From Bacteroidia bacterium (GTDB lineage Bacteria; Bacteroidota; Bacteroidia; AKYH767-A; OLB10), in NCBI GenBank assembly GCA_046330075.1, contig JAXLTL010000001.1, forward strand, positions 930,341 to 994,340: a stretch of DNA of 64,000 nt. The letters are read 5' to 3'. Each line of letters opens with the position of its first letter. The first letter of the stretch is position 1. The notes under the pieces are model-generated. The model worked only from the letters and a program-made list of their open reading frames with translations, was not told the origin of the DNA and did not search any database. Made by a program: the position numbers and the translations under genes. This document shows positions 3,191-41,134 of the stretch, one piece after another.

Positions 3191-3265
<75 letters not shown>

Positions 3266-3300: not shown

Positions 3301-3866
3301 GTCATTAAAAACATAGAGCGCTTGCATGCCCCGAAAGTTTTCGGGGAAGAGGTCACCGGGCGCTCTTCGCTCCGGATTGCTATCCACTAATTCTGCCCTC
3401 TGATCCTAAACTTATAGAGGGCTTTGTCATTAAAAACATAGAGCGCTTGCATGCCCCGAAAGTTTTCGGGGAAGAGGTCACCGGGCGCTCTTCGCTCCGA
3501 ATCACCATTCACTAATTCTGCCCTCCGATCCTAATCTTATTGAGGGCTTTGTCATTTATATAACATGTTTTACGTTTATTTCATTTACTCAGCACGTTTA
3601 GATCGATATTATGTCGGTTACACATCTGACCTTCAGAAGAGATTGAATGATCATAATTGTGGAATTTCTGCATTTACATCTAAGTCTAAGGACTGGGTAC
3701 TGGTGTATCAGGAAGCTTTTGAATCTCGAGAAGAGGCCGCTGAAAGAGAACGAATCATTAAAAAGAAAAAAAGCAGGAAGTATCTCGAATGGCTCATTGC
3801 AGGGAATAATTCATAGAGCGCTTGCATGCCCCGAAAGCTTTCGGGGAAGAGGTCACCCCTTCCGGC
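3294..3866 (+). repeat. tandem tRNA-Ala-derived repeats: two complete 125-bp units (3294-3418, 3419-3543) and a third unit split by the GIY-YIG ORF
   Basis: Each unit reads GGGCTTTGTCATT..CATAGAGCGCTTGCATG + hairpin CCCCGAAAG(T/C)TTTCGGGG + AAGAGGTCACCGG..ATTCTGCC. This mimics the D-stem, anticodon stem, T-arm and acceptor 3' of the adjacent tRNA-Ala, with the anticodon loop replaced by a new hairpin. Confidence 0.65.
3565..3816 (+). CDS. GIY-YIG nuclease family protein (URI domain, COG2827/UPF0213-like)
   Basis: N-terminal FYVYFIYSARLDRYYVGYTSDLQKRLNDHN matches the GIY-x10-YIG motif plus the conserved R and N. It is 83 aa. The ORF starts and stops exactly at repeat-unit junctions. Confidence 0.75.
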   Translation: MFYVYFIYSARLDRYYVGYTSDLQKRLNDHNCGISAFTSKSKDWVLVYQEAFESREEAAERERIIKKKKSRKYLEWLIAGNNS

Positions 3867-3987: not shown

Positions 3988-5511
3988 ATGGGTTACTTCC
4001 GCTACTTGTTTTTATTGATGATTTTGCTGCCGGGATCAGCAACAGCACAGTATAATGGTAATTACTGGTGTTTTGGGGATAGTGTTATGATAAATTGGAG
4101 TAACCCTAACAACCCTGTAATTGGGGCTTCTTCTTTTGATTTCCGAAACGGATCATCAAGTATTGCTGATTCTAACGGCATACTTTTATATACAGGTTAT
4201 AATTACAATGTTCAACCAGTCAGACCCTCGGTTTGGAACAAATATAATAATGATATAAATGATTCAATACGGATCAAAGGTGGCCTTTGGTATCATGCCA
4301 GTTTATTTGTACCTGATCCTGGAAATGATTCAATTATTTATTTATTTACAATTGGTGTTACTCAAGCTGAACAGTACGGTCTATACTACTCCAAAATCAA
4401 CTATAAAGCGAACAATGATTCAGGAATAGTCATTCAGAAAAATGTGCAGCTCAATAATTTTCCTGCCTTTGACGCACTCATGTCCGTGCGGCATGGTAAC
4501 GGTAGAGACTGGTGGGTGATATTTCAGAGATATACAACCAGCCTTACCCCATTTAATTCATTTTACCTTTTTCTTGTTTCGCCATCTGGTATTTCAGGTC
4601 CTGCAATTCAGAATATTGGTTCATTACGTAAAACCGGCGGCGGGCATCTGATTTTTAATAGTGATGGTACTCAATTTGTGCAATGCTCTTGGTTAGGTAT
4701 GATCGAACTCTACAATTTCGATCGCTGTACAGGTACCATCACTTCCACCATCCCTATTGAACAAGAACCATCTGTAGCTCCCTACCCACATTGGTATTCC
4801 AGCTGTGCTTTTTCACCAGATGATTCGAAATTATATGTAGCAGACTATTCGCAAACCACTTCACCATCTTATTTATGGCAATATGATTTATTAGCTACGA
4901 ATGTACCTGCGAGCAAAACCTTGATTGATTCATTTGTTGATCCTGATATGGGAATAGCGCAACTTCGCTTGGCCCCCGATAATAAAATATATTTATCAGC
5001 CTCAGATGAAGGTTTTCCATGGCCTTACCCAGATACCATCACCGCCTACACCACCATCAACAACAACCTCAGTGTTATCAACCACCCGGATAGCCTGGGT
5101 GCTGCCTGCGATTTTCAACCCTTCAGCTTTTCCCTCGGTGGTGCCCGCACCTACTACGGCCTTCCCAACAACCCCGATTACGAGTTGGGGGCTTGGGTAG
5201 GTAGTCCTTGTGATACGCTAACTGTGGGCCTCACCCCCGGCCCATCAGAGGAGAAGGGAGCATGGATGCAGGCATGGTATAACCACGAATGGAACATGAT
5301 TCACGTCAACGCGGCGCAGTTGAAAGGGAAGAAAGGTGTGTTGCGGTTGTTTGATATCGAAGGAAGAATCGTTTTCGAAAAACCGGCGGAGGTGGTGGCG
5401 GGTGGGTATTATACGACGGAGATTTATATGAATGAGTTGTCAAGTGGGGTTTATGTCGTCAACCTGGTCACGGATCGGGAGACGTTGTCGTTTAAGACTA
5501 GTAAATACTAG
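3988..5511 (+). CDS. secreted T9SS cargo protein, paralog A of a 3-member family (conserved N-terminal WCFGDS motif plus T9SS CTD)
   Basis: Signal peptide MGYFRYLFLLMILLPGSATAQ. The C-terminal ~115 aa are about 90% nucleotide-identical to 9287..10837 and 39123..40664, ending GVYVVNLVTDRETLSFKTSKY. Confidence 0.75.
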   Translation: MGYFRYLFLLMILLPGSATAQYNGNYWCFGDSVMINWSNPNNPVIGASSFDFRNGSSSIADSNGILLYTGYNYNVQPVRPSVWNKYNNDINDSIRIKGGLWYHASLFVPDPGNDSIIYLFTIGVTQAEQYGLYYSKINYKANNDSGIVIQKNVQLNNFPAFDALMSVRHGNGRDWWVIFQRYTTSLTPFNSFYLFLVSPSGISGPAIQNIGSLRKTGGGHLIFNSDGTQFVQCSWLGMIELYNFDRCTGTITSTIPIEQEPSVAPYPHWYSSCAFSPDDSKLYVADYSQTTSPSYLWQYDLLATNVPASKTLIDSFVDPDMGIAQLRLAPDNKIYLSASDEGFPWPYPDTITAYTTINNNLSVINHPDSLGAACDFQPFSFSLGGARTYYGLPNNPDYELGAWVGSPCDTLTVGLTPGPSEEKGAWMQAWYNHEWNMIHVNAAQLKGKKGVLRLFDIEGRIVFEKPAEVVAGGYYTTEIYMNELSSGVYVVNLVTDRETLSFKTSKY

Positions 5512-5536
5512 TTACAAGAGCATTTGTTGGTTTAAC

Positions 5537-5556
5537 CCTGCCTGCCGGCAGGCAGG
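5537..5556 (+). promoter_or_regulatory. perfect 20-bp palindrome CCTGCCTGCCGGCAGGCAGG in the 3' UTR shared by the CTD genes
   Basis: The identical palindrome and the following CGCAGCGAAAACGGCGACTCGCAACG recur at 11867-11912. A variant sits at 3871-3890. There is no T-tract, so it is not a canonical terminator. Confidence 0.35.
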
Positions 5557-5583
5557 CGCAGCGAAAACGGCGACTCGCAACGT

Positions 5584-7035
5584 CCCGATAGCTATCGCAT
5601 TGGCGTTAAGCTAAGCCGATTACTTTTCAACTCAAACTTCTTGATAATTAGCTTGGTATTAGAATAAAAAAGGCTTCCCCTTTGCATAATTATGTTGCGC
5701 TAACAAACTCTAACATGCGCACGGGAAGCCAAAACAAATATATGCAACATGACTTGAATTCAAAGTTAAAGTTGCTAGGTATCACAAAACTGGAGAGAGA
5801 ATTGGGTTTTAGAAAACGACGTACAGGCAAGATCAGATTGCAAGCACTTGTTGAAAGTTTTTATAAGTCATGTTTTCGGAGTAAATTTTCATTGTCAAGC
5901 TGGGCTTTTCAGTTGTCGGCTCAGGAAGGACTCTGCATTAGCAAGCAAGCTGTCTTTTACAGGGTCAATAGTTCATTAACTAAATTATTGGAAAGACTGC
6001 TCAACAATGCACTCGTTGCACAGATAAAGCCGAGCCAGACTTCACAGAATAGCAGATTTAAAAATGTATATATCCAGGATGGAATGGCAATTAAGTTGCC
6101 GGACAATTTAAGTACAAAATACAAAGGAAATTACTCGCGCGGCAAGATAAAAGCGGTAGCGAAATTGCAAGTAATTTATAATGCCAGTAAACGAAATTTT
6201 AAATCTATTCTGCTAACTCCTTTCACAAGAAATGACCAGACAGCCTCATCCGACATATTGCCGTTACTAAAGAAGGGAGATTTGGTCATACGCGATATGG
6301 GATATTTTGTAATGCCCACCTTTAGACAAATCGTACAACGTAAGGCAGACTTCATCAGTCGATATAAAAAAGATGTGGCCATAATTGATTTAAAGAGTAA
6401 GCAGGCGGTGTCAATAATACAATTATTGAGAGGAAAAACGGTTTTGAAACGAAAAGTTATTCTTGGTGCAAAAGAACAGCTTGAATGCACGTTGATAGCG
6501 GTTAAGGTAGCTCCATGTTTGGCGGAGGCAAGACGAAGAAAAGCCATGAAAGATCGTGATAAGCGACTAAGGTATACCCAGGATAAAAAAATATTGCTTG
6601 GATGGGATATTTATCTGAGTTCTTCACATGATCTGGACGTAAAAGACGTTCAAGATTATTATGCAGCTCGTTGGCAAATAGAGATCATTTTTAAGTCTTG
6701 GAAAAGTGGTTTGAGTTTAGAGAAGTCCATTCCGGGTCAACTGAATTATGATCACTTAGCGGTAACAGTTATCTATCTTCATTTGTTACTGATTGTACTT
6801 ATGATTACGCCCATATACAACACCTTGAAATCACTTATACGTAGGCCCGAAGATAGAGTAAGCCTCTTGAAATCAGTTAAAATCATCTTAATGATGATCA
6901 TTAACAATCGAATACAATTTGACTTAAATGTTGCCTCTAAATTGGCCAACTTTACTCTTTATGAAGTTAGGAACCGGGACACGATGGCAGATAAACTGAG
7001 GATTTTAGCTTAACGCTAATGCGATAGCTATCGGG
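5584..7035 (+). mobile_element. IS4/IS5-superfamily insertion sequence (~1.45 kb) with 28-bp terminal inverted repeats
   Basis: IRL 5584-5611 CCCGATAGCTATCGCATTGGCGTTAAGC and IRR 7008-7035 are reverse complements with 1 mismatch. They flank a single DDE transposase ORF. No clear target-site duplication. Confidence 0.8.
5682..7013 (+). CDS. IS4-like DDE transposase
   Basis: Motif DYYAARWQIEIIFKSWK fits the Y(2)R(3)E(6)K IS4 signature. Candidate catalytic D residues lie in YIQDGMAIKLPD and LVIRDMGYF. The stop codon lies inside IRR. Confidence 0.8.
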   Translation: MHNYVALTNSNMRTGSQNKYMQHDLNSKLKLLGITKLERELGFRKRRTGKIRLQALVESFYKSCFRSKFSLSSWAFQLSAQEGLCISKQAVFYRVNSSLTKLLERLLNNALVAQIKPSQTSQNSRFKNVYIQDGMAIKLPDNLSTKYKGNYSRGKIKAVAKLQVIYNASKRNFKSILLTPFTRNDQTASSDILPLLKKGDLVIRDMGYFVMPTFRQIVQRKADFISRYKKDVAIIDLKSKQAVSIIQLLRGKTVLKRKVILGAKEQLECTLIAVKVAPCLAEARRRKAMKDRDKRLRYTQDKKILLGWDIYLSSSHDLDVKDVQDYYAARWQIEIIFKSWKSGLSLEKSIPGQLNYDHLAVTVIYLHLLLIVLMITPIYNTLKSLIRRPEDRVSLLKSVKIILMMIINNRIQFDLNVASKLANFTLYEVRNRDTMADKLRILA

Positions 7036-7179
7036 AGCAGAGAAATCTTCATAACATTAAAAACATTTTAACCATTTAACACTTTAACTCCCGCCTTACG
7101 GGATTAACATTTATAATACTTATAACCTTCCCCCTACGGTAACCTCAGTTTAATTCAGGATTTTTCTTAAATTTGATTG

Positions 7180-9279
7180 ATGCTCCTCCGCTCCAACACC
7201 TTCACCTCCTCCGGCGGCTATTTGCTGGCACCCTACAATACCGTTCACAAATTTGCGGCTATCGTGCTGGATGATGTGGAAAGGGTGGTGATTGGGGATA
7301 GTTCGCTGGATGGGTCGGTGAGTGCGAATTTGTTTGAAAACTCAAATTTTGGAATCAGAGCAAATAAATCGAGTTTTGAACTTTACAATAATACCTTCAA
7401 TAACATCACTGAATTGGATGGTTCGGCACTGCCAGTTGATCGAAATGGGACTTGCGTATTTAATCGTTCTGCCAGTGATTATAATGACCGTAAACTCATT
7501 GTAGGAAATCTGGATTATACATTGACTTCTCCAGCTGTGTCCCGAAGAAATAGTTTCACAAACTCACGTACAGCAATTTTCAGTATTGGCGAGTCAAACA
7601 TAACCATCTATAACAATGAGTTTGGTTCTCCTGTCAGCAACCAGAATTTCATTGAACAGAATTGTGTTTCAATTTTCAACAATCCAAACAAATCCATTAA
7701 CATTAGCAGGGAAAATGATTTCTACGATTACAGGCTTGGTATTTTGATCAGAGGTCTTAACGATCAAACCCAAATAGACATAAGTAAGAATAGTTTTTAC
7801 AATTGTCGTCTGACCGCACCCGTAGCCAATTTCGACGGTACCGCCATTTTAGTAACATCCGTTCTTCCTGTCAACCGTATGCTGGATGCCCGGATCCACA
7901 ATAATCAAATCGGCATTTTGGATGGCTCGAACTATTACCAGCCCCGAATAGGTATCCATATTGCCAATACGGGTGGGGTGAAGATTGAAGAGAACGAAAT
8001 CCGATTTAATCTTACTTCAGTTCCCGGTGACCTATATAGGGGCATCAGATTAGAATCTGCTCCGGAATGTGTAGTATCAACTAATACAATTGAAAACACA
8101 GGGACTGTATCTTTGATCGGCAATCAATTGGTAGGAATACGGACGGATCAGTCATCTATGCCAATAATAAAATGCAACACGTTGGTCAGATTAGGACAAT
8201 CGTTGCAGTTTGTGAATAGTAACGATTATGTATCATTGATCTCAAATTTTTTAAATGGTTATGATTTAGGGGTTCAGTTAGGTGATGGTGGCGCAGGTAC
8301 TTTCATTGGAGACTTTCAAGGTGCGCCTGGCATTGGATTAGATAATCTCTGGATGGACAGTCAGAATGACCGGGTGGAAGGATTTTTATCGAATTTCTCA
8401 CCTATGCCATGGTACCATCACGGGTCTGAAATCTTCAGCAACAATGGAGCCCCGGTTAGATCCGACAATTCAAGTTCAGGTTCGATTGATCCAATTGGAA
8501 ACCAGCCAGCATATCTTGATCAACCTTGCGGCGATGATAACTCAACGGAAAGGAGTACGGGTTTTGGCTCTATTGCTGCCGATACTGCCCGCTATGAAGG
8601 CCCATATGCGGATCAATTTCTATATACTCGAAAAGCTACCGCATTCTCCTATCTGATGGCTGATACCGGGAGAATTACCATGGGACGCAGTGATGATCAG
8701 GTATTTGAAAAACTTATCAATGATCTTTCCATTTCGAATATTGGAAAGTTCGATGCAATTATTAAACTATCACAAATCGACAGATGGAATGAAGCCAATG
8801 AAATATTGAGTACAATCAACGATACCAATAATCATGAATACTATTTGAAGCAGGTGCTTTCAATTCTAATTGAAACAGCAATAGAAGAACGTGAACTTAA
8901 TAGCAGCGACACCAACTTACTTTTTGAAATTGCCCATTTGCATTCAATGGAAGGAGGTCTCGCAGTGAAAATCGCAAGGGTGGCATTGCAACTGGAGTTG
9001 GAAGACATTGGCAGCGGCAGCAGATTGTATTCACAACTAGAAGACAAATCTTTGCCGGAAATAACGCTCTGGCCGAATCCGGTACGCAGCACAATAAATA
9101 TTAACCGGCACGAAACTTTCAGGTATCAGATTTATGATGCAGCAATGCGATTGGTTTTAAGTGGTGAAAAGAAGGATGGGATGATTAATGTGGAGGTTCT
9201 TGCGAATGGGTATTATTCTCTAATTGTCACAGACAAAGAAAGAAGGTATAAGCCACTTGGGTTTTGCAAAATAGATTAA
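7180..9279 (+). pseudogene. right-handed parallel beta-helix repeat protein with a T9SS CTD that lacks a signal peptide; probably a 5'-truncated cargo gene
   Basis: N/G-rich imperfect repeats typical of a pectin-lyase-like beta-helix. C-terminal ...YYSLIVTDKERRYKPLGFCKID matches a Por secretion tail. An in-frame TGA sits at 7174-7176 and the N-terminus MLLRSNTFTSSGG is not a signal peptide. The gene lies 145 bp downstream of the IS4 element. Confidence 0.55.
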
Positions 9280-9286
9280 TGAAACC

Positions 9287-10837
9287 ATGTTTAGAATACA
9301 AAAAATAATTTATATAATCGGGGCCCTAATCTATATTAGCCTGAAAACTCATGCGCAGTTTACGAATAACAACTGGTGTTTCGGTGATAGTGCTGGTGTT
9401 CGTTTTGATTCGGCGATAAGTATATTTCGATGTGGAACTGGCTTCACCAGAGGGACAGCAACAATTTCTGATATCAATGGGGATTTGATTTTCTATGGGG
9501 CAACCAGTAACACGACAAATGAATTTACCGGTCAAATTAAACAAGGTAAATTGTTTAATAAATACCATACTGAACTAATAAATGGTGACACTTTAGTTGG
9601 TGGCAATTGGTATCATTGTATGCTTGTTTTACCAAAATCAATAATCGACAGTACATTTTATGTATTTGTGGCTGGGGTGGTAGTACCTGACACCGGTTTA
9701 TGGTATAGCATTGTGGATATGAAATTACAGGGGGGAGTGGGTGCAGTGGTACAAAAAAATGTCAGATTTGAAACGCACCCTGTTCAGGATATGCTCACTG
9801 CCGTGAAACATGGCAATGGCAAGGATTGGTGGTTGGTAACCAGACGATGGCGTTCAAGTGGTGCCGGAATCGGGAATGATGAATTCTGGGTTTATCTTGT
9901 AGATTCAATTGGAATTCATCCATTAGCTGTACAGCATATTGGAACCTCAAATTATAATGGAGCCGGTGATATGAGTTTCAATTCTACAGGTGACAAATTG
10001 GCCTTGTGTGGCTGGGGTAATTATTTGGGTGTTTTCGACTTCGATCGATGCACCGGCCAAATCTCAAATGAAACCCTGATAGAACCGAACACCCAACTGG
10101 GCAACCACCCATACCGTTGGTACACCAGTGTTGTTTTTTCACCAAGTGGGCAATTTTTATATGTGAATTCATCGCAGGAAGCATATCAGACAAGTGGTAA
10201 ACTATATCAGTTTGATTTAACTGCCACAAATATTGCTACTAGCAGGGTATTAATTGACTCTTTTCCTACAAATGCAGAGAATCATGGAATGGAATTAGGA
10301 CCAGATGGGAAAATTTATATTAGTGCACAGGAATTTGGAGGGTGCACTTACCCATGGCCTAGTGGTTGTTTTAGCACTATAAATTCAAACCTCAGTGTAA
10401 TTAACTCTCCAGATAGCTTGGGGTCTGCATCAAACTTCCAACTATTTGCTCTTAACTTAGGAGGCTATCGTGCTTATAGGGGTCTCCCCAACAACCCCGA
10501 TTACGAGCTGGGGGCATGGGTGGGCAGTCCTTGTGATACGTTAACTGTGGGCCTCACCCCCGGCCCCTCTCCAGAGGAGAGGGGAGCCTGGCTGCAGGCA
10601 TGGTATAATCACGAATGGAATATGATCCATGTGAATGCGGCGCAGTTGAAAGGAAAGAAAGGAATGTTGAGGTTAATGGATATAGAAGGCAGAATCGTTT
10701 TCGAAAAACCGGCGGCGGTGTTGGCAGGAGGGTATTATACGACGGAGATTTACATGAATGAGTTGTCAAGTGGGGTTTATGTTGTCAACCTGGTTACGGA
10801 TAGAGAGACGTTGTCGTTTAAAACCAGTAAATTCTAG
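9287..10837 (+). CDS. secreted T9SS cargo protein, paralog B
   Basis: Signal peptide followed by NNNWCFGDSAGVRFD. Homologous along its whole length to 39123..40664(-), with a conserved 3' end ...VNLVTDRETLSFKTSKF. Confidence 0.75.
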   Translation: MFRIQKIIYIIGALIYISLKTHAQFTNNNWCFGDSAGVRFDSAISIFRCGTGFTRGTATISDINGDLIFYGATSNTTNEFTGQIKQGKLFNKYHTELINGDTLVGGNWYHCMLVLPKSIIDSTFYVFVAGVVVPDTGLWYSIVDMKLQGGVGAVVQKNVRFETHPVQDMLTAVKHGNGKDWWLVTRRWRSSGAGIGNDEFWVYLVDSIGIHPLAVQHIGTSNYNGAGDMSFNSTGDKLALCGWGNYLGVFDFDRCTGQISNETLIEPNTQLGNHPYRWYTSVVFSPSGQFLYVNSSQEAYQTSGKLYQFDLTATNIATSRVLIDSFPTNAENHGMELGPDGKIYISAQEFGGCTYPWPSGCFSTINSNLSVINSPDSLGSASNFQLFALNLGGYRAYRGLPNNPDYELGAWVGSPCDTLTVGLTPGPSPEERGAWLQAWYNHEWNMIHVNAAQLKGKKGMLRLMDIEGRIVFEKPAAVLAGGYYTTEIYMNELSSGVYVVNLVTDRETLSFKTSKF

Positions 10838-11277
10838 TTGAATTCAGAATTCAGGATGCAGAATTCAGAATTGCCCAACCTCTCGGGACACTTTTTTGAT
10901 TTTGCGATCAAACACCCAATAGAATCAAAACCTACAGGGTTGTTTTAGTTAATGAAGTCAGAGAAAAAAACGGCCCTCAGCACCGCTGGTTTTTGAAGCG
11001 CAGTGAACGGTGGAATAGACGGAGGGAAGCGGCGAATGGAATGAGCCGATCACCCGACGGCCCGCCGTACACAAGCGAAAAAAATTCCGCGATAGCGGAA
11101 AGGCGGTGGCGGTTCCTGAGCCTGTCGAAGGATGCAGGCCTTGATCTTTTTGGGTTACCCTGAAGCAGAACGAAGTACGCTTCAGGGTGACTGGGGGTTT
11201 AAGGGGACAGCGTCCCCTTGGGATGTTTAAGTATGGAGAATGCTGAATGAAATGGACAGATTTGCCGGATTGGGAGA

Positions 11278-11345
11278 ATGGGGTTTATGTTGTCAACCTG
11301 GTCACGGACAGGGAGACGTTGTCGTTTAAGACTAGTAAATTCTAG
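11278..11345 (+). pseudogene. 3'-terminal fragment of a T9SS CTD coding sequence, unit 1 copy
   Basis: Encodes ...GVYVVNLVTDRETLSFKTSKF* with no upstream gene body. About 94% identical to the 3' end of 9287..10837. Confidence 0.5.
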
Positions 11346-11775
11346 TCGAATTCAGAATTCAAGATGCAGAATTCAGAATTGCCCCCGCCCCGGAATACAA
11401 TTTTTAATTTTGCTGATTAAATAACCAATAGCAAACAAAAACCGACAGGCATTTTAATAGCAATAGAAACAAGAGAAAAAAATCGGCCCTCAGCATATCC
11501 GGTTTTTTGAGTGAAGGAAGTGGCGGAAAAGTTCGAGGGTACCCCGATAGCTATCGGGGCCGAATGAAATGAGGAGATCCCCCCTGAGAACCCGCCACGG
11601 ACAAGCTCAAAAAATTCCGCGAAAGCGGAAAGGATATGGTGCAGGCCTTGATCTTTTTGGTTACTTTTTCTATCAAGAGAAAAAGTGACCAGGGGTTTAA
11701 GGGGACAGCGTCCCCTTGGGATGTTTAAGTATGGAGAATGCTGAATGAAATGGACAGATTTGCCGGATTGGGAGA

Positions 11776-11843
11776 ATGGGGTTTATGTTGTCAACCTGGT
11801 CACGGACAGGGAGACGTTGTCGTTTAAGACCGGGAAATTCTAG
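11776..11843 (+). pseudogene. 3'-terminal fragment of a T9SS CTD coding sequence, unit 2 copy
   Basis: Same fragment ending ...SFKTGKF*. It is followed by the palindrome and 3' UTR sequence that also follows gene 3988..5511. Confidence 0.5.
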
Positions 11844-12016
11844 TTACAGCAGCATTTGTTGGTTTAAACCTGCCTGCCGGCAGGCAGGCGCAGCGAAAAC
11901 GGCGACTCGCAACGAACGCAACGGCACGGGGGAAAACATTTATATCCCTGAGGCTTCGCTCCGGGCGCAAGCGCTTCGCAACTCTGTAACTCAGTAGCTC
12001 TGTAACTCTGTAACTC

Positions 12017-13291
12017 CTACAACCCCGTAGGAACCCATTCCCCCTGATTGTAAATACCAATGGGCTTGCCTTTAAACGTGGTGCCGGTGAAAGGTGTATT
12101 GGACGACTTCGACTGAATATGCTCTTTACCGAAGGTCCACGCTGTAGCCGGATGATAAACAGTGAGGTTGGCGATAGCGCCTTTCGTGATGGAGGGGACA
12201 TCTATACCCAATATACGGCGCGGATTTTTCACCAGTACTTCGTACATCCGTTCCCGTGAGAGGCTTCCCTTAAAGGCTGCATTGAGTACACCGTAAAAAC
12301 TCTCCAGTGATATCATGCCATAGGCTGCGTAGTCAAACTCCACATCCTTCGACTCCAGATCCTCCGGCGAATGGTCGCTGCAGATCACATCGATGGTTCC
12401 GTCGATGACGGCTTCTCTGAGAGCAAGTACATCATCAGCCGTACGCAGTGGTGGCTTCACTTTATACATACTGCTGAATCCTTCCAGGGAGGTATCATCC
12501 AGCAGCAGATGATATACATAAACTTCCGCCGTCACCGGTACTCCTTCTTTCTTCGCTTCACGGATTCTGTTCACTGCATCACGGGTGCTGATACCGGATA
12601 TGTGTATTGGCACTCCTGCATATTTCACCAGACTGAGATCACGTTGTACCGCAATCTCTTCGGCAATGGCAGGTGCTCCCTTGAACCCGAGTAATGTGGT
12701 GAACGGGCTTTCTGTCGCCTGCAGCTTTGCTGTTAAGCCAGGATCATCAGCATATGAAATAACAGGCGCTCCCAGATTGCCCGCATACTGCAGCGCTCTC
12801 AACATGACTCCGCTGTTTCCAATGGCCCGCTTTACGTCCGTGAATGCTACTGCTCCGGCAAGTTTCATATCGTACATTCCCGCAAGCTCTTTTCCCTCGA
12901 GCTGTTCTGTTAATGCTCCACCCGGAAATACATCCACCGGATATCCCGTGGCTCTGGCTTTGATAAAACTAACATCGGCATGCGTTTGTATAGCTGGATG
13001 GGTGGAAGGCATCACTACAACTCCGGTAAAACCTCCTTGTGCAGCGGCCTTTTGACCCGAACGTATCGTTTCTTTTTGCTCATCGCCGGGTTCTCTGAAA
13101 AATGCACGTAAATCAAGCCATCCGGGTGATACTTCCACCCCGGCTTCTTCAACAACCACCGTTTCTGCCGGTGCTGTGAGCCCGTTTCCTGTTTCCTGAA
13201 TGATCCCGTTGTTTACAAGAACATCCGTGTTTTTACCGTGGAGTGATGAGGACGGATCGTTGATCCGTACGTTTTTCAGGAGAAGGTTCAT
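12017..13291 (-). CDS. dihydroorotase-like cyclic amidohydrolase
   Basis: Amidohydrolase fold motifs: VSPGWLDLRAFFREPG, DVICSDHSPE, and a metal-binding HxH-type region. Likely start is MNLLLKNVRI. The start overlaps the upstream stop by ATGA. Confidence 0.7.
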   Translation of the reverse strand: MNLLLKNVRINDPSSSLHGKNTDVLVNNGIIQETGNGLTAPAETVVVEEAGVEVSPGWLDLRAFFREPGDEQKETIRSGQKAAAQGGFTGVVVMPSTHPAIQTHADVSFIKARATGYPVDVFPGGALTEQLEGKELAGMYDMKLAGAVAFTDVKRAIGNSGVMLRALQYAGNLGAPVISYADDPGLTAKLQATESPFTTLLGFKGAPAIAEEIAVQRDLSLVKYAGVPIHISGISTRDAVNRIREAKKEGVPVTAEVYVYHLLLDDTSLEGFSSMYKVKPPLRTADDVLALREAVIDGTIDVICSDHSPEDLESKDVEFDYAAYGMISLESFYGVLNAAFKGSLSRERMYEVLVKNPRRILGIDVPSITKGAIANLTVYHPATAWTFGKEHIQSKSSNTPFTGTTFKGKPIGIYNQGEWVPTGL

Positions 13292-15429
13292 GCGGTTTTC
13301 CAGTATCGGATGAGTAATATTTCTATGAGCAGAAAGAGTAAAGCCAGTGTGACAGCATACTTCCATAAGGGTGTTCCCTGATGCAGTGTTTGCAGCGCCT
13401 TCGTAAGATCAGGAATACCGGCCTGCATTAAATCCCAGTTCTTGTATCCGGCCTGACCGGCGGCAGCACTGATAACAGCTTCGTCCTGGAATTTCATGAC
13501 CGATTCCCGCCGGTTGTAGTTGTATGAGAGGATGGCCACCCGCTGATTACCCCGCTTAAGTTCATATTGTCCGGCTGCCGGTACCTGATCTCCTGCCGAA
13601 ATGAGCAACCCTCCGTTCACTTGCTTTACGGAAGGAATAATATCAGTCTTAAGCCGTTCATTGACCAGATGGAACGTCTCGTCACCGGTAAGAGCCGGCA
13701 GATTAAGTAATAACGGTTGCGCATGTCCGAGAATAGACGAAATCGCGATCGGCCGGGTGCTGAGCAATGCCATTCGGTATAACAGCGGTGCAAAGATCGC
13801 ATGGCGGGAAAGGTTGCTGAATCCGCCTTCCATCGGAACAGTGAAGAGATAAATGGCTCCTTTACCGGATGGATATTGTTCGAGCAGACTTCCACCACCC
13901 TGTAATTTCATGAGTGATTGTCCCGCACTGCCGTTGGTGTTGATAAGATCAAAATGACGTGCAACGGATGGGTAGTCAATGCGACCATCGCGCATCTGTT
14001 TTGTTTCAAACACTTCGTTAAAGACCGGATGCTGCACATCTACAGAAATGACCTTATCAGCAGATGCGTTGATTCCACCCATTTGATCAATACCTAATGC
14101 AGCAAAGGCGGCGTTTAAGCTGGGGTCAGCAATCGCGGAATCAGGGAATATGCACAGTGTTCCTCCGGCTTCGGTGAATTTCCTGAGCTCCTGCGCCAGC
14201 CCACTGGAAATCTCACGAATATCTTCCAGCAATACCATCTCCGTATTTTGCAGTGCGCTAAAGTCGACGGTGCCGGTTGTTGCTCTTTTCAATACAAAGG
14301 ATGGATCCTTGCCAAAGAGGGCTTCAAGGTATTTCAGCGGTGTGCCGTCCCCTATTATCAATAAGTCAGTTTTTTCACGCACTTCAAAGGAAGTGTAGTA
14401 GCTGTCATCAAAAGTGATGGGGTGATCGGTAAGTTGAACTTCCAGTCGCTGCCAGCCGGGAGCCGACACGGTAAAACTGAAGGTGACTGTGGATGATTGT
14501 CCGGCAGGAACCAGCACACTCGACACGGCCTTCTGTGCGTCATTGAGTAATAATCTGACCGGCACATTTTCCGCATCCTTTTCGCCAGTATTCAATACCT
14601 TCACTGTAATTTCGGAAGGTTGGTTCAGTTGTACTACCGGACCCGACAACCAGCAGGAGTCGATCAGCACATTTGGCGTTTCCTGCAAAGGCAAGGCTAC
14701 AAAGGATACGTGGATGGCAGAATCGGGTGTGGAGCCAGCTATTTTAAATGTACTCTCCTGAAAATCGCTGATGATAAACGACCGGAAGCCGTCAGATCCG
14801 TTAGCGTTCAAGGCTTCCTTCTGACGCAGCATTACTTCATCCAGCGTTCTGCTCACCGGTGAGAATTGTATCCTGCTAAGCTCCTCCATAAAATCATCCT
14901 TACTTAGCATACGCTGCTGCACTGCAGAAAATTCGTTCGTGAGCAACTGGAATCGGGTACTGGCCGGATAAGCGCCAGCAATCTCCTTTGCTTTGCGCCG
15001 GGCCACTTCCAGTAAAACACCTTCGTTGCCAACTGCATCCATACTAAAGGAGTTATCGACATAAATACCGACGGTACCTTGCTGTACCTGAGCGGCTGCA
15101 TGACCAGCCGGAATATAAGGCTGCGCAAAAGCCAGTACGATGAAGGCAACAGCGAGTAACCGGGAGCAGAGAATGAGCAGATGTTTCAGACGGGAAATTC
15201 GGGTCGTTTCCTCCTTCAGCTCGGTGAGAAATTTCACATTGGTGAAGAGTATTTTCTTGTACCGGCGGAAATTAAAGAGGTGAATGATGACCGGAATGGC
15301 CAGCAATGAAAGGGCGAAGAGATAATGGGGAGCGATAAACCTGATCACCGTGGGCGAATGTTTTGCAAAGGTAATAAATAGAAGGTCGTGTAGCAGCAGA
15401 AACGCAACAGTCGCTTTATTATTTCCCAT
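13288..15429 (-). CDS. BatA N-terminal-domain (aerotolerance-related) membrane protein, large extracytoplasmic form
   Basis: N-terminus HDLLFITFAKHSPTVIRFIAPHYLFALSLLAIPVIIHLF..RRYKK resembles the BatA_N double-TM segment. About 700 aa. Translationally coupled to the downstream amidohydrolase. Confidence 0.55.
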   Translation of the reverse strand: MGNNKATVAFLLLHDLLFITFAKHSPTVIRFIAPHYLFALSLLAIPVIIHLFNFRRYKKILFTNVKFLTELKEETTRISRLKHLLILCSRLLAVAFIVLAFAQPYIPAGHAAAQVQQGTVGIYVDNSFSMDAVGNEGVLLEVARRKAKEIAGAYPASTRFQLLTNEFSAVQQRMLSKDDFMEELSRIQFSPVSRTLDEVMLRQKEALNANGSDGFRSFIISDFQESTFKIAGSTPDSAIHVSFVALPLQETPNVLIDSCWLSGPVVQLNQPSEITVKVLNTGEKDAENVPVRLLLNDAQKAVSSVLVPAGQSSTVTFSFTVSAPGWQRLEVQLTDHPITFDDSYYTSFEVREKTDLLIIGDGTPLKYLEALFGKDPSFVLKRATTGTVDFSALQNTEMVLLEDIREISSGLAQELRKFTEAGGTLCIFPDSAIADPSLNAAFAALGIDQMGGINASADKVISVDVQHPVFNEVFETKQMRDGRIDYPSVARHFDLINTNGSAGQSLMKLQGGGSLLEQYPSGKGAIYLFTVPMEGGFSNLSRHAIFAPLLYRMALLSTRPIAISSILGHAQPLLLNLPALTGDETFHLVNERLKTDIIPSVKQVNGGLLISAGDQVPAAGQYELKRGNQRVAILSYNYNRRESVMKFQDEAVISAAAGQAGYKNWDLMQAGIPDLTKALQTLHQGTPLWKYAVTLALLFLLIEILLIRYWKTA

Positions 15430-15603
15430 CGAAGCGTCCCCCCTGCCCGCTCTATACCCTGATTCCACCAGCTGGTTTCGCTGACTTCCCGCTATTCAAT
15501 AGGTTAGAACGATCACTATTAACATTGGATTGTAGATTACGGCCGGAGATCCTGCGATTCACCGACCCTGATCTGCCGTTAAATTCGGAAAAACACATGG
15601 CCT

Positions 15604-16956
15604 ATGCCCAGGATCTCCACTAAAGACAAAGACAGAAAGATCTTTGTACTCGATACCTCTGCTATCCTTTTTGATCACAACGCCTTTTTTAATTTTAAGG
15701 AGCATGATGTAGCTATTCCCATTACCGTACTCGAGGAAATTGACCGGTTTAAGAAAGGAAATGACGTGATCAACTTTGAAGCACGTGAATTCATCCGGGC
15801 GATTGACAAGTTATCGGCCAGTTATTCCTTGCAGGACTGGATTCCGCTCAATGGTCCTACCAAGGGCAAATTCCGCGTGCTGATGCATGAAAAAAGCAGC
15901 ACCATCGACGCCGATCAGGTATTTGGCGAGCGTAAAGCGGATCACCGAATCATCAATGCGGCAATGAGCATACAGGAAGAATATCCGCACCGCAAGGTTG
16001 TGCTGGTGAGCAAGGATATCAACCTGCGTCTCAAAGCCCGTTCCCTCAACCTCGCTTCAGAAGATTATGAAACCGGAAAGGTTAAGGATATAAAGGATCT
16101 CTACACCGGTAAATCAGTCATTGAGAACGCACCGAAAAAAGCAATAGACAAGTTATATCAGGATGGCTGGTGCGCCTGGAAGGATATCGTAAAAGAACGC
16201 CCGATTAAAAATCATTATTTTATACTCCGCAGTAAAACAGAGTCGGGCTCCGCACTCGCCTGGTATAATCCGCTGAGCGATCGCATCGAGCGAATCCAGA
16301 AAGAACCGGCAGCAGGTATACGACCCAGAAATGCTGAACAGGCTTTTGCTATCCATTCGGTACTGAATCCAAATATTCTGCTCAGTTCTATTATGGGCAT
16401 CGCCGGGTCGGGAAAGACTTTACTGGCATTGGCTTCTGCTCTCGAGCAGAAGAGTAAATTCAGGCAGATCTATCTGGCAAGGCCCATCGTACCGCTCAGC
16501 AACAAAGACATCGGCTACTTGCCGGGAGATATTAAATCGAAGATTAACCCCTACATGGAGCCTTTATGGGATAACCTGAAGTTCATCCAGAGTCAATACA
16601 AGGAAACTGATAAGGAATTTCAGAAAATCAATGATATGGTGGAGAATGAAAAACTGCATATTACGCCGCTGGCCTATATCCGCGGACGCAGTTTGAGCAA
16701 TATCTGCTTTATCATTGATGAAGCACAGAATCTCACGCCTCATGAAGTAAAAACGATAATCACCAGAGCCGGAGAAGGCACTAAAATTATTTTCACAGGA
16801 GATATCTTTCAGATCGATACTCCGTATCTCGATTCACACAGCAACGGACTCAGCTCCCTCATTGACAAAATGAAAAATCAGGAGCTTTACTCCCACATCA
16901 CGCTTGAAAAAGGTGAACGCAGTGACCTGGCGAATCTGGCAGGGCATCTGCTTTAA
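15604..16956 (+). CDS. PhoH-like ATPase with an N-terminal PIN domain (YlaK-type)
   Basis: PIN-like N-terminus (FVLDTSAIL....ITVLEEID). Walker A GIAGSGKT and Walker B FIIDEAQN of the PhoH family. Confidence 0.8.
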   Translation: MPRISTKDKDRKIFVLDTSAILFDHNAFFNFKEHDVAIPITVLEEIDRFKKGNDVINFEAREFIRAIDKLSASYSLQDWIPLNGPTKGKFRVLMHEKSSTIDADQVFGERKADHRIINAAMSIQEEYPHRKVVLVSKDINLRLKARSLNLASEDYETGKVKDIKDLYTGKSVIENAPKKAIDKLYQDGWCAWKDIVKERPIKNHYFILRSKTESGSALAWYNPLSDRIERIQKEPAAGIRPRNAEQAFAIHSVLNPNILLSSIMGIAGSGKTLLALASALEQKSKFRQIYLARPIVPLSNKDIGYLPGDIKSKINPYMEPLWDNLKFIQSQYKETDKEFQKINDMVENEKLHITPLAYIRGRSLSNICFIIDEAQNLTPHEVKTIITRAGEGTKIIFTGDIFQIDTPYLDSHSNGLSSLIDKMKNQELYSHITLEKGERSDLANLAGHLL

Positions 16957-37018: not shown

Positions 37019-38038
37019 TTAGTAGTGCTGTCCATGGCTTTGGTCAACTGTTATGCAAAGGTAGGCATCGGCTGCGGGCTTGTCAAGGCTCATGCCGAGC
37101 GGTTGATTTGTCGGTTTTGATACAGCGGTATCAACCGGCCTTGACAAGCCATCATCCGCTGCAAAGGTGCTCTGCATAAGAGTTGACAAAGCCATTCCTT
37201 GATCCCATTTTTGCTGAGGCGTAATGCGGCCCAGATTTTTATGCTTTCGTTTATTATTATACCAATGCATGTAATCTTCAATATGCTTCTTAGCTTCATA
37301 ATAACTTAGAAATTGATATCGGCAATATAATTCCCTCTGTTGGATGCTGTGGAAGGATTCAATATAGGCGTTTTCTTCGGGTGTAGCAACGTGGGTAAAC
37401 TCTTGACGCGCTTCCATTTCTTGTAATGTGCGTCTGACTTCATTAGCCAGGAACTGCGAACCATTGTCATTGCGGATAATTACGCCCTTTAAATCATATT
37501 TAAGATGCAGATACCGGAACATATCTATCACATCCTTTTTTCGTACACTGGACTGGAATATCCAGTGAATGATCTTTCGGCTGTATATATCCATAATCGA
37601 CAGCTGATAATACCATCTGCTTTCTCCGTGCACCCAGACATACTTGATATCAAGACATAAATACTCCATTGGGCGGGAGGCTTCGACCTTGCGATACTGA
37701 ACCCTCTCTCTCTTGCCCTTTGTCCGGATAACTTTCCCCAATAGCAACTTTTCTTCATCCATGATCCGGTACACTTTTTTATCGTCAATCCAATATCCCA
37801 TTTCCCGAAGCTCTGCCGTCACATTCTGATAGCCATATGCATTGTAAGGTCCCAGAATAATGCCTTTGATCTCCGCTACGACTTGTTGATTCTCTACCAA
37901 CTCATTCTTGAAGAGTGTATGCGTACTCGGCTTTCGGCCCGGTTTACCCTCTGTGGGCTTGTAGTAATAGGAGCTGGAGGGAATTCCTAGCCACTTCATC
38001 AGATCCGTTGTGCTCGCCTTACCTATATACGCCTGCAT
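37019..38038 (-). CDS. IS3 family transposase OrfB (rve integrase core; expressed as OrfAB by -1 frameshift)
   Basis: DDE integrase core. HWYNNKRKHKNLGRITPQQ C-terminal motif typical of IS3/IS150. The -1 frame is open back to the A_AAA_AAA site. Confidence 0.8.
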   Translation of the reverse strand: MQAYIGKASTTDLMKWLGIPSSSYYYKPTEGKPGRKPSTHTLFKNELVENQQVVAEIKGIILGPYNAYGYQNVTAELREMGYWIDDKKVYRIMDEEKLLLGKVIRTKGKRERVQYRKVEASRPMEYLCLDIKYVWVHGESRWYYQLSIMDIYSRKIIHWIFQSSVRKKDVIDMFRYLHLKYDLKGVIIRNDNGSQFLANEVRRTLQEMEARQEFTHVATPEENAYIESFHSIQQRELYCRYQFLSYYEAKKHIEDYMHWYNNKRKHKNLGRITPQQKWDQGMALSTLMQSTFAADDGLSRPVDTAVSKPTNQPLGMSLDKPAADAYLCITVDQSHGQHY

Positions 38039-39122: not shown

Positions 39123-40664
39123 CTAGAATTTACTGGTCTTAAACGACAACGTCTCCCGATCTGTGACCAGGTTGACCACATAAACCCCCTCCGAAATTTC
39201 ATTCATATAAATCTCCGACGTATAATAACCTCCCGCCAATACTTCCATCTGTTTTTCGAAAACGATTCTGCCTTCGATATCCAGCAACCGCAACACCCCT
39301 TTCTTCCCCTTCAACTGCGCAGCATTCACATGAATCATATTCCATTCATGGTTATACCACGCCTGCATCCACGATGCCTCCGGTGTTGGGCCGGGGATGA
39401 GGCCCACAGTTAACGTATCACAGGGACTACCCACCCAGGCGCCCAGCTCGTAATCGGGATTGTTGGGGAGGCCGTAGTAGGTGCGGGCACCGCCGAGGGA
39501 AAAACTGAAGGGTTGAAAATCACAGGCGAGACCAAGGGAATCGGGTTGGTTGATGACGGAGAGGTTTTCGTTGATATAATTCCAGCAGGTAGAAGGATAC
39601 GGAAAGCCGGAGCCTGGACCAGCATAAACACAACTGATGTAAATTTTACCATCCGGTGCCAGCTCCATTCCACCGGGAGTTGCTTCAATTGGAAATGAGT
39701 CTAGTAACACTCTTGAGTTGGGAATATTTGACGCGTTCAAATCAAACTGGTAAATTTTGCTGTTTAGATTATAGATGTCCTGTGCAGAAGTAACATATAG
39801 TTTATTGCCGTCTTCTGAAAATACCGCATCCATATATAGTTTGAACAGGCTTCCTGGAGGCGCATATTGTTCAATTACTGTTTCATTTGAAATCAATCCG
39901 GAACATCTGTCAAAATCAAATACTCCAAGATAACTGCCAAGTCCGGCTAATACTATTCTATCACCTGAATGATTGAAGCTTATATCACCACCATTATCAA
40001 AATGCGAAGTTCCTACAAATTGAGTGGGCAATGGATGTATACCTACTGAGTCTACCAGATACACCCAGAATTCATTGTTCTTTACATACCCCGGCGCATA
40101 GGTCCATCTGCGTGTTACCAGCCACCAGTCCTTTCCATTTCCATGACGTACTGCAGCCAGCATATCTTGCACGGGATGTGTTTCAAATCGGAAATTCTTT
40201 TGCACCACCTGACCTAAACCTCCCTGCAATTTCATGTCCACAATATTTACCCATAAGCCCGTATCGGGATAAACAACTCCGGCCACAAACACATAAAAGG
40301 TGCTGTCCGTAACCGACTTTGGGAGAACGAGCATATCATGATACCATTCACCTCCAACTAAGGTGTCACCATTAAATAACTTTTGATGTAGTTTATTAAA
40401 AAGTTTACCTATCCTTAATAGACTACTATTAGAGTTTGTTGAGTTGCCGGTTGCACCATAAAACAGCAGATTGCCTTGTACATCAGAAATAGAAGAAGTT
40501 CCTCGAAAAAAGCCACTCCCACTTTTGAAAAAGGCAATACCATTATCGAAATTAATTCCAGCACTATCACCAAACACCCAATTATTATTCCTGAATTGAG
40601 CATATGTTTTCAACTGACAGAACGATATCAGTATTAACAGCCAGATAATGTTTCGACTCATCAT
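39123..40664 (-). CDS. secreted T9SS cargo protein, paralog C
   Basis: MMSRNIIWLLILISFCQLKTYAQFRNNNWVFGDSAGINFD N-terminus. Full-length homology to 9287..10837. The same near-identical CTD. Confidence 0.75.
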   Translation of the reverse strand: MMSRNIIWLLILISFCQLKTYAQFRNNNWVFGDSAGINFDNGIAFFKSGSGFFRGTSSISDVQGNLLFYGATGNSTNSNSSLLRIGKLFNKLHQKLFNGDTLVGGEWYHDMLVLPKSVTDSTFYVFVAGVVYPDTGLWVNIVDMKLQGGLGQVVQKNFRFETHPVQDMLAAVRHGNGKDWWLVTRRWTYAPGYVKNNEFWVYLVDSVGIHPLPTQFVGTSHFDNGGDISFNHSGDRIVLAGLGSYLGVFDFDRCSGLISNETVIEQYAPPGSLFKLYMDAVFSEDGNKLYVTSAQDIYNLNSKIYQFDLNASNIPNSRVLLDSFPIEATPGGMELAPDGKIYISCVYAGPGSGFPYPSTCWNYINENLSVINQPDSLGLACDFQPFSFSLGGARTYYGLPNNPDYELGAWVGSPCDTLTVGLIPGPTPEASWMQAWYNHEWNMIHVNAAQLKGKKGVLRLLDIEGRIVFEKQMEVLAGGYYTSEIYMNEISEGVYVVNLVTDRETLSFKTSKF

Positions 40665-41134
40665 GTTTATTTCAACTTGATAAATTTCAAACTATGCTGT
40701 TTGTCGTTTTCAGGAAGGACAATAATTGTATAGACGCCCGGGGCCATCACCATCAACAAAAACAAATAGCGGAACAAGGTCATGAATCAAAGGTAAGGAA
40801 AATTGAGTTGAATGATACTGTTTCAATCGCTTGCGATGCAAGGGTTCAGAACCTGTCCCGAGCAAAGCCTCGGGATCCTGAACCATTGCACCTGATACAT
40901 CTCGCCTGCATTTTCAAGAATCAACATTGCCGAAAGGGGGAACGCGGATGAAGCCGATTTGGCGGATGGTCGCTGATTTTATTTGTCTTTAGACCGGTCA
41001 CCACCGGATAATATTTGTCTCATGGCCGGTCGCGACCGGCCACTACCATCTCTTGCCCCTTTACCCCTATTCTACTCCCGCACTCTGTGCGGGATGCCCC
41101 TCCTTTTCTCTCTTTTCTTCTCTATCTTTACCCC

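Follow-up and report, generated by a model that had tools for sequence, protein, structure and literature searches.

An IS231-type element in a palindromic target and a family of short type IX secretion cargo genes in a Bacteroidia bacterium

The stretch of DNA analysed here, called the window below, comprises 64,000 nucleotides of a Bacteroidia bacterium (assembly GCA_046330075.1, contig JAXLTL010000001.1, positions 930,341 to 994,340 of the forward strand). It contains an insertion sequence (IS) of the IS4 family and, downstream of it, a gene for a beta-helix protein that ends in a C-terminal domain (CTD) of a type IX secretion system (T9SS) and has no signal peptide. A first-pass annotation had read this arrangement as consistent with a deletion or rearrangement, mediated by the IS, that removed the 5' end of the gene and left a likely pseudogene or a re-purposed fragment. 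Comparison with other copies and with empty sites shows instead an ordinary insertion of the IS231 type into an intergenic palindrome that resembles the repetitive extragenic palindromes (REPs), with a 12-bp palindromic target-site duplication (TSD) and no deletion. The open reading frame (ORF) downstream is shown, by alignment of homologous loci, to be an intact member of a family of short genes, the short forms, which have a common ATG behind a TAAATTTGATTG-type motif. Its 5' truncation is real, but on the same comparisons it is old, family-wide and not made by the IS of the window. The joint explanation that we consider best combines an ordinary IS insertion, a start that belongs to the whole short-form family, blocks that recombine and a donor role of the short forms; we would put its probability at about 0.75. 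The coordinates of the features are collected in Table 1.

The insertion sequence and its concealed duplication

The ends of the element first appear as inverted repeats (IRs) of 31-32 nt (5583/4-5614 and 7005-7035/6) with one mismatch, for which 0 matches are expected by chance and which are found at no other place within the window. Clean repeats with one mismatch had also been noted in the first-pass annotation, and this part stands; the length of 28 bp given there does not. It is conspicuous that the outermost 12 bp of each apparent IR are CGATAGCTATCG, i.e. a perfect palindrome, which the repeat search also listed as a perfect direct repeat. Since the 12-mer is palindromic it reads as a direct and as an inverted repeat at once, and the two copies therefore make true IRs of 17 bp seem 31-32 bp long and conceal the duplication. 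No direct repeat is present outside 5583/7036 in the window element, nor outside the TCC/GGA arms in its relatives. The duplication that had been reported as absent is seen once the boundary of the IRs is shifted inward to CAT.

This placement of the ends agrees with the family to which the element belongs. The IS231 subgroup has the ends CAT-------AA--TAA and direct repeats of 10-12 bp (PMC2266710 Table 1). From position 5598 the element reads CATTGGCGTTAAGCTAA, a perfect fit, and its right end is CATTAGCGTTAAGCTAA. In the end alignment the Bacillus copies of IS231 (L044-L048) end in CATGCCCATCAACTTAAGAA and the Bacteroidota relatives in CAT(T/A)GGCGTCAAG(T/C)TAA. Ends of the IS231 type (CAT..GCGTCAAGxTAA) were moreover seen in many metagenome-assembled genomes (MAGs) of Bacteroidota (Chitinophagales, Ferruginibacter, Bacteroidales; L008-L036).

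The transposase is a single ORF without a frameshift, which the ORF list also allows to begin at TTG 5682. It reaches 156.7 bits (cut-off 115) against the IS4 equivalog model NF033592 (transpos_IS4_1) of NCBIfam and 1.7e-22 against Pfam PF01609 (DDE_Tnp_1), which bears out the earlier description of an IS4-like element. Its translation contains Y-AA-R-WQI-E-IIFKSW-K, in agreement with the Y-(2)-R-(3)-E-(6)-K signature (the YREK motif) of region C1, a motif of the IS4 family (PMC2266710). The amino acid identity is 24-29% to the Bacillus elements and 32-46% to the Bacteroidota relatives (at most 46% in the scan of genome contigs), and exactly the same protein is recorded in two MAGs. In the features compared, i.e. 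ends, YREK motif, single ORF and length of the TSD, the element is by its sequence like the IS231 subgroup. For that subgroup a typical size of 1450-5400 bp is given, and many of its transposase pairs are more than 50% similar (PMC2266710). The length of the IS is slightly under the quoted lower size, and given this size and the 24-29% identity it may represent a sister clade of the subgroup.

Other copies of the same IS were collected by a scan of metagenomes with the inner end sequence, which gave 13 contigs (L090-L102) with 14 flanks. In these the constant terminus CATTGGCG is adjoined by five different 12-mers (CGATAGCTATCG, CGATACCTATCG, CGATAGGTATCG, CGATAGCCATCG and CGATGGCTATCG), and the 12-mer is adjoined by (T/C)CC in all 14. 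One of the variants, CGATACCTATCG, is asymmetric, and its orientation tracks the flank, whichever end of the IS is joined to it (L096/L100 versus L092/L097). In L096 the flank ...GGCAGGCA-TCC-CGATACCTATCG adjoins the left end of the IS, and in L100, L091 and L093 it adjoins the right end. The flank on the other side, CGATACCTATCG-GGA-GCAGCGAAAACGG, meets the right end in L092 and the left end in L097. As a matter of sequence, the variant 12-mers prove that the central positions of the TSD are target DNA. The outermost CG/CG of the 12-mer would also belong to the TSD, by homology with the relatives alone.

Empty sites point in the same direction. Here the comparators are paralogous or orthologous loci and not an isogenic strain without the IS. 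An empty site at L001 9730 reads ...GGCAGGCA TCCCGATACCTATCGGGA GCGAGGAGCGCAAGGG..., with a single copy of the 12-mer. The sequence on the left of this site recurs in L091 next to a right end of the IS, that on its right recurs in L094 next to a left end, and both junctions keep the full 12-mer. The best comparator for the site in the window is L096 118-132, where GCGGA-CCGATAGCTACCGGG-AGCAGGGAAATCTTCATAACATTAAAAACATTTTAACC... contains a single degenerate palindrome, followed by the same sequence as lies 3' of the IS in the window. Upstream of homologous genes, L001 5820 and L089 1594 have a palindrome in the equivalent place; both are intact, as are those at L001 9730, L092 714 and L097 12528.

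Among the relatives of the IS, several have TSDs that are unambiguous and abut CAT...ATG. Those of L016 (TGGTTTCGCA) and L017 (TGCGACAGCA) are non-palindromic and 10 bp long. The TSD of L033 (CGATAACTATCG) has 12 bp with an asymmetric centre, is identical on both sides of the same strand and is flanked by TCC/GGA. Further cases are L034, L057, L082 and L083.

Two stand-alone contigs, L005 and L006, consist of the same IS with its flanking target 12-mers (99.8-100% identity). As collapsed repeats they show, at the level of the assemblies, that the IS is multicopy in related MAGs. L005 spans exactly CCCGATAG...CTATCGGG and so ends at CCC...GGG, as is expected if every copy of the IS sits in the same type of palindrome. 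The exact extent of this contig would also suit an explanation in which the palindromic 14 bp (CCCGATAGCTATCG) are part of the IS, i.e. an element with 31-bp IRs and a sub-terminal hairpin that transposes without a duplication. Distant relatives that have a near-palindrome and TCC/GGA at both ends, sometimes unlike within one copy, could be quoted for it as well. However, the 12-mer differs among copies of an identical IS and follows the flank and not the end of the IS. Lone intact palindromes occur without any IS, some of them at sites that are occupied elsewhere; asymmetric and true direct repeats are present in L033, L016 and L017, and the end signature of the family begins at CAT. We consider an IS that includes the 14 bp very improbable.

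Two observations concern copies whose ends do not agree. In the IS relatives L012, L014, L018, L020-L023 and L028, and in L091 with the same IS, the 10-12 nt beside the two ends differ, each of them still being a near-palindrome within TCC/GGA brackets. The two flanks of L091 can be traced to different sites, which indicates a chimeric assembly or recombination between copies; in the end-mismatched relatives the same cause is probable. L096 (4053-4173) and L100 (1-121) both have the IS in the same palindrome downstream, attached by its left end in one contig and by its right end in the other. There may have been two insertions, independent and oppositely oriented, into a target that is symmetric, or one contig may extend into another copy.

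Taken together, the IS transposed by the usual cut-and-paste route of its family into an 18-bp palindrome of the intergenic spacer, whereby the central 12 bp of TCC-CGATAGCTATCG-GGA were duplicated and nothing was deleted. The case has a bearing on annotation. Where an IS has palindromes as its target, the duplication that it makes is palindromic too and can be mistaken for longer IRs, so that the element seems to have no TSD. The ends of a seemingly TSD-less IS should be compared with family members and with empty sites before its surroundings are read as the scar of a deletion.

The short forms and their long relatives

The ORF of the short-form gene begins at ATG 7180 (or at TTG 7177, which gives 700 aa), 145 bp after the apparent IR and right behind an in-frame TGA, as had been annotated. 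All three frames across 7036-7179 contain stops, which rules out an alternative start upstream as well as a frameshift. No hydrophobic core is present in the N-terminus, MLLRSNTFTSSGGYLL..., where the highest Kyte-Doolittle mean over 10 residues is 1.53, compared to 2.5-3.5 in neighbouring secreted proteins and in full-length relatives, and the beginning MLLRSNTF was thus rightly described as a non-signal N-terminus.

The domains named in the first-pass annotation were also confirmed, with different degrees of clarity. The C-terminus scores 26.7 bits against Pfam PF18962 (Por_Secre_tail), just below the cut-off of 27 bits, and most of the homologues carry precomputed PF18962 matches. An AlphaFold2 model (pLDDT 72.9) has a strand-rich part at residues 1-370, a helical domain at about 457-604 and a C-terminal beta-sandwich at about 631-698. 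The last of these matches the solved T9SS CTDs 8qb1 and 8glk_D in Foldseek with a probability of 1.0 (TM 0.65-0.75). The strand-rich part gives weak (best E 5e-3) but consistent matches to right-handed beta-helix proteins (AlgG, tailspikes, PfbA).

The DNA before the ATG is conserved as well. The leader of the window gene is 94.8% identical to L002/L003 over 96 nt, and stretches of it are 75-80% identical to L096, L001 and L088. In L089, the most divergent of these loci, the conservation covers the last ~20 nt only (CTAAATTTGATAG), and L088 has 68 nt of upstream sequence in all. The leader contains TAAATTTG, which we take to be a putative -7 promoter box of the Bacteroidota type. With Rfam, run at its gathering thresholds, a tRNA was the only match in the window, with no RNA element upstream of the gene, and a self-splicing intron as the cause of the missing 5' end was dropped. 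The 143 bp from the right-hand palindrome to the ATG match homologous loci that are free of the IS. In L002 the match runs unbroken and without an IS from a C-terminal remnant of the partner type (see below) through the spacer and the insertion point into the ORF. Nothing is thus missing at the IS; the leader is unaltered, and the insertion lies 143 bp upstream.

Sixteen homologues of the protein were found, most of which are 693-722 aa long and have the same N-terminus. Residues ~1-45, M[LFIV][LI]RSNTFTSSG..LLAPYNTVHKFAAIVLDDVERVVIGDSS, are nearly identical among them, and otherwise the proteins are only 26-50% identical. Shorter starts as called in P0008, P0010 and P0012 are choices of the gene caller; P0010, for example, is the L096 gene read from an internal GTG. 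According to the DNA alignment the same ATG is present in five loci that have no IS and have different neighbours (L001, L002/L003, L088, L089 and L096), and the upstream DNA, too, is shared by L002 and L096 and partly by L001. The frame of 700 codons is open in more than 10 copies, with codon conservation in the order position 2 > 1 > 3. This coding-type constraint, together with the open frame, makes a pseudogene unlikely, which contradicts the earlier suggestion.

Long relatives exist. A search of 1.84 billion representatives was made with the first 60 residues; one of its matches, P0022, is a translation of a low-complexity repeat and was set aside. The block is N-terminal in the short forms and internal in the long ones (P0019 915-971, P0023 1185-1239, P0025 1621-1676). 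A search with P0019 led to proteins of 2150-2344 aa that are annotated as 'T9SS type A sorting domain-containing'. These full-length relatives hold the N-terminal block of the short forms at about residue 1460-1660, and intact ones have classic signal peptides (P0028, MNTSFIRIVAVICVAMLSILNVNNALA; also P0025 and P0030). P0014 (L103) is a long form cut by the start of its contig. The motif ELGNEFY is present in P0019, P0023 and P0025, and we take it, from general knowledge, to be similar to a catalytic motif of glycoside hydrolases. The order in the long forms is thus a signal peptide, a region with this putative glycoside-hydrolase-like motif, the beta-helix and the CTD. In other words, the short forms correspond to the C-terminal ~700 aa of the long forms and lack ~1450-1650 N-terminal residues including the signal peptide. 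The DNA of the long forms was compared at the loci L100 and L103-L106. In L104 the long-form gene is interrupted behind codon 185, which leaves the fragment with the signal peptide (9397-9954) and a remainder of 2150 aa (10001-16453) as two ORFs; L105 and L106 have the same arrangement, and the three JGI samples show an identical split.

An adjacent deletion by the IS, which took away the 5' end and the signal peptide and left a pseudogene, can now be judged. There is indeed no direct repeat outside the apparent 31-bp IRs, the ORF has no signal peptide and starts after an in-frame stop, and longer homologues with signal peptides do exist. The alignment to homologues that had been proposed as a check accordingly gives two answers, i.e. 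~1450-1650 residues are missing with respect to the long forms, and homologues of equal length use the same start codon. The loss of a 5' end with the signal peptide therefore holds against the 2150-2344-aa relatives but not as an event at this locus, since the short-form homologues share the start and are free of the IS. Against a deletion stand the 12-bp TSD with the ends placed at CAT, the sequence from the IS to the ATG, which is continuous with IS-free loci, and the left flank, which runs into the same spacer modules there. At least five short forms have the same start in contexts without the IS, and the ORF is intact and under constraint of the coding type. The empty-site comparisons and the TSD refute the deletion, to which we give next to no credence. 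Both observations that the first-pass annotation had itself named as refuting its explanation, a TSD after a shift of the IR boundary and homologues with the same start, have been made.

Conserved blocks, partner genes and neighbourhood

The short forms do not stand alone. A partner gene for a protein of ~510 aa with a signal peptide and a CTD follows every short or long form on its 3' side wherever downstream sequence exists. This gene order is kept in L001, L004, L088, L089, L096, L103, L105 and L106, and partly, up to the end of the contig or locus, in L002, L087 and L104.

The variability along the two genes is very unevenly distributed. Over codons 1-45 of the large gene, loci are 56-90% identical at four-fold synonymous sites; over the remaining ~650 codons the value is ~30%, i.e. 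at saturation. The 5' block of the window gene is 83-94% identical at the DNA level to the short forms and about 84% identical to the long forms of L100 and L103-L106. The partner gene shows the inverse arrangement. Among loci with blocks of the short-form type its last 125 codons have 76-95% amino acid and about 50-78% synonymous identity, and its N-terminal ~385 codons have 37-82% (mostly 37-50%) amino acid and mostly about 30% synonymous identity. The groups formed by the variable region cut across long and short forms. The window protein, P0001 and P0002 group with the extended P0003 and P0005, P0006 and P0007 with P0015 and P0025, and P0008 and L096 with P0019. Across these groups the blocks of the short forms stay 67-93% identical.

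Divergence at the synonymous sites of the block is much lower than in the remainder of the gene, even in comparison to long forms in which the block is internal, and selection at the protein level alone does not explain it. The pattern fits repeated homologous exchange or gene conversion. We suggest that the homogenised 5' block and the 3' block of the partner gene flank a hypervariable cassette of two genes, and that homologous recombination within the blocks could shift such cassettes between loci, including between long-form and short-form contexts. That cassettes move between loci in this way seems to us fairly probable on the sequence pattern. In the 64-kb window neither the 5' block nor the 700-aa protein has a match other than itself, i.e. 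no paralogue and no inverted copy of the block is present, and a local shufflon was rejected within these 64 kb.

An apparent case of exchange is provided by two metagenome contigs from two assemblies. L096 (WBZP01028691.1) carries a short form. L100 (WBZT01005934.1) carries a long form, in which residues 445-2335 of P0028 are covered in one high-scoring segment pair and the ORF is open to the end of the contig. From nt 311, two codons past the ATG, to nt 4069 L096 is 99.5% identical to L100 over 3759 nt without a gap. It is conspicuous that 13 of the 19 mismatches lie at nt 323-381, within the first 71 nt of the block (18% divergence), and only 6 in the remaining 3688 nt, so that the identity beyond the crossover is 99.84% (99.8%). 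Upstream of nt 311 the two contigs are unrelated, with a non-coding leader (...TTAAATTTGATTGATGTTCAT) in L096 and coding sequence (...GCGGCCAACTACCT) in L100. The apparent crossover lies inside the block near CACAAATTTGC, and the common cassette of 3.7 kb runs from the variable portion of the large gene through the entire partner gene into the spacer, as far as an IS insertion. Recombination at the block predicts such a pair.

Table 1. Features of the window that are discussed in the text.
Feature	Position	Strand	Remarks
Insertion sequence proper, IS4 family, IS231 subgroup	5598..7021	+	1424 bp; ends fit the subgroup signature
Terminal IRs of the IS	5598-5614 (CATTGGCGTTAAGCTAA); 7005-7021 (reverse complement CATTAGCGTTAAGCTAA)		17 nt, 1 mismatch
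Transposase gene	5715..7013	+	432 aa from ATG; stop codon within the right IR
TSD, left copy, 12 bp, CGATAGCTATCG	5586..5597		direct repeat; variant 12-mers in other copies; single copy at empty sites
TSD, right copy, 12 bp, CGATAGCTATCG	7022..7033		same basis as for the left copy
REP-like target palindrome TCC-CGATAGCTATCG-GGA, 18 bp	left arm TCC 5583..5585; right arm GGA 7034-7036
Short-form gene	7180..9279	+	699 aa from ATG; beta-helix, helical domain and T9SS CTD; no signal peptide
Conserved non-coding leader of the short-form family	7084..7179	+	TAAATTTGATTG at its 3' end, adjoining the ATG
Conserved 5' block, first 45-60 codons	7180..7359	+	proposed recombination junction common to short and long forms
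Partner gene	9287..10837	+	516 aa, signal peptide and CTD; last ~125 codons (about 10463-10837) are the conserved 3' block
Upstream paralogue of the partner gene	3988..5511	+	507 aa; conserved C-terminal block
Intact unoccupied target palindrome CCCCGATAGCTATCGGGG	11542..11559		same window; the homologous site carries the IS in L102

Two further paralogues of the partner gene are present in the window (3988-5511 and 39123-40664). The conserved C-terminal block of the first, together with a hairpin-rich spacer (5512-5585), forms the left side of the junction that is occupied by the IS. The second, on the minus strand, stands alone, encodes 513 aa and is 83% identical at the DNA level to the partner gene of L001. 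Upstream of it, at 40670-40756 (minus strand), lie the last 29 codons of a short form similar to P0002 (76% amino acid identity), which look like the relic of a deleted short-form gene. Judged from this remnant a real deletion would have occurred there, unlike at the locus beside the IS. A second, unrelated transposase ORF (37019-38038, minus strand; rve domains and HTH_21, IS3-like) lies ~1 kb from the solo partner gene.

Downstream of the partner gene, at 10771-11882, a unit of ~500 bp is repeated in tandem two to three times (spacings of 508 and 498 bp). Each unit ends with a piece of ~65 nt from the 3' end of the partner CTD, and the second holds the unoccupied palindrome of Table 1. A different REP-like palindrome (GCATGC-CCCGAAAG(T/C)TTTCGGG-GAAGAG) occurs in three copies (3330-3345, 3455-3470 and 3830-3845). 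These surround a small ORF with a GIY-YIG nuclease domain (3565-3816), beside the tRNA (3191-3264).

Possible role of the short forms and likeness to known systems

T9SS cargo must cross the inner membrane via Sec before it reaches the T9SS, and a CTD is meaningful only after this export. A short form without a Sec signal cannot reach the periplasm, which argues for donors of cassettes rather than for secreted proteins. The short forms might be a reservoir of variable cassettes for the long form, comparable to the orphan modules or 'functional pseudogenes' of variable-surface-protein systems. Each cassette would contain ~650 codons of the beta-helix/helical/CTD protein and ~385 codons of the partner protein. 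We offer only tentatively the idea of a standing reservoir from which recombination of the RecA type, within the conserved 5' block and the 3' block of the partner gene, swaps two-gene cassettes into a long-form T9SS gene of ~2200-2300 aa that has a signal peptide. That the short forms act mainly as donors for the long form with its signal peptide is conceivable, and we hold it with equal reserve.

The short forms could also be autonomous genes that are expressed from a promoter of their own (the TAAATTTG box), possibly from a leaderless ATG. The 45 N-terminal residues would then be kept for the function of the protein, e.g. for folding of the first rungs of the beta-helix or for binding of the partner, and the recombination of blocks would be incidental concerted evolution among paralogues. 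In accordance with this, the in-frame ATG at the junction is kept in all short forms, the -7-like box 4 nt upstream is conserved, the substitutions in the block are mostly synonymous, which indicates purifying selection on the peptide, and the ORFs are complete through the CTD. On the other hand, such genes would have no signal peptide although the CTD requires prior export by Sec, the synonymous sites of the block are too little diverged in comparison to the rest of the gene, even against long forms, and the pair L096/L100 apparently shows one cassette in both contexts. Autonomous expression is in our view a serious alternative, if an unlikely one.

Several points weigh against the joint explanation favoured here. 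In the window copy alone a palindromic 12-mer cannot tell a direct from an inverted repeat, and in several distant relatives the sequences that adjoin the two ends differ. The pair L096/L100 consists of two metagenome contigs, which the assembler may have joined wrongly at the repeated block. No long form lies within the 64-kb window. Moreover, the break point coincides with an in-frame ATG, and 4 nt upstream of it lies a -7-like TAAATTTG box; both favour expression of the short forms in their own right, and a pure donor-cassette model requires neither of them.

Genes that have a T9SS CTD and no signal peptide tend to be written off as mis-called or broken. In the present case such genes make up a conserved family whose junction blocks are homogenised, with one or more apparent exchanges with a full-length gene, and the architecture of short and long forms with a common cassette retains our interest. 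In this respect the gene family is a more useful lead than the IS, which is otherwise unremarkable, except that it extends the IS231 subgroup into the Bacteroidota and has a very narrow REP-like target. If confirmed, the exchange of cassettes would be a recombination-based mechanism for the diversification of T9SS cargo. If the donor role is true, environmental Bacteroidota would possess a variation system like pilS or msp2 for a secreted or surface pair of enzyme and adhesin.

Of the known systems, the IS231 subgroup with IS231A of the Bacillus cereus group is the nearest to the IS. Common to both are a single-ORF DDE transposase, the YREK motif, the CAT-------AA--TAA ends and a TSD of 10-12 bp. 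An insertion specificity for particular target sites has been reported for the subgroup, which the IS4-family survey of 2008 found nearly confined to Firmicutes (PMC2266710). The IS of the window differs from the Bacillus elements in its 24-29% amino acid identity, its host in the Bacteroidota, its 1424 bp and its target, which is the specific REP-like palindrome (T/C)CC-CGATNNNNATCG-GG(A/G). By sequence it is a further element of the IS231 subgroup, distant from the others, and comes from a phylum in which that survey saw almost none.

The ISs that target REPs or palindromic units, such as IS1397 and ISKpn1 of the IS3 family, strongly prefer short extragenic palindromes, so that they come to lie in intergenic hairpins and rarely disrupt genes. 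They duplicate 3-4 bp in the loop of the hairpin. The preference for palindromes is the same here, but the transposase belongs to another family, and essentially the whole 12-bp stem-loop is duplicated and mimics longer IRs.

The cassettes recall the donor systems of Anaplasma (msp2/p44) and Neisseria (pilS/pilE) and the orphan C-terminal (CT) modules of CdiA/Rhs toxins. In such systems 5'-truncated copies without a start or a signal have conserved 5' and 3' blocks around a hypervariable centre, and recombination in the blocks places the variable part in a full-length expressed gene. In our case the cassette is very large (about 3.1-3.7 kb over two genes), an in-frame ATG and a promoter-like box are retained, the hosts are environmental Bacteroidota, the cargo is a T9SS protein of the glycoside-hydrolase-like/beta-helix kind, and the 64-kb window has no long form. 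The likeness lies in truncated copies without an export signal, in conserved flanking blocks and in one cassette that apparently occurs in both contexts. It may describe a possible way of working and does not by itself establish membership.

For gene conversion in T9SS cargo, a literature search brought up only a paper on domain exchange in Porphyromonas gingivalis, and nothing that describes the short-form family. T9SS surface proteins of P. gingivalis are reported to undergo domain rearrangement and allelic exchange (PMC5266723). In that case, as reported, the exchange takes place among genes that are full-length and expressed, and between strains, and a truncated family without signal peptides and with a fixed junction is not involved (PMC5266723). 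The two cases are alike in that genes of T9SS cargo diversify by recombining paralogous or allelic segments (PMC5266723).

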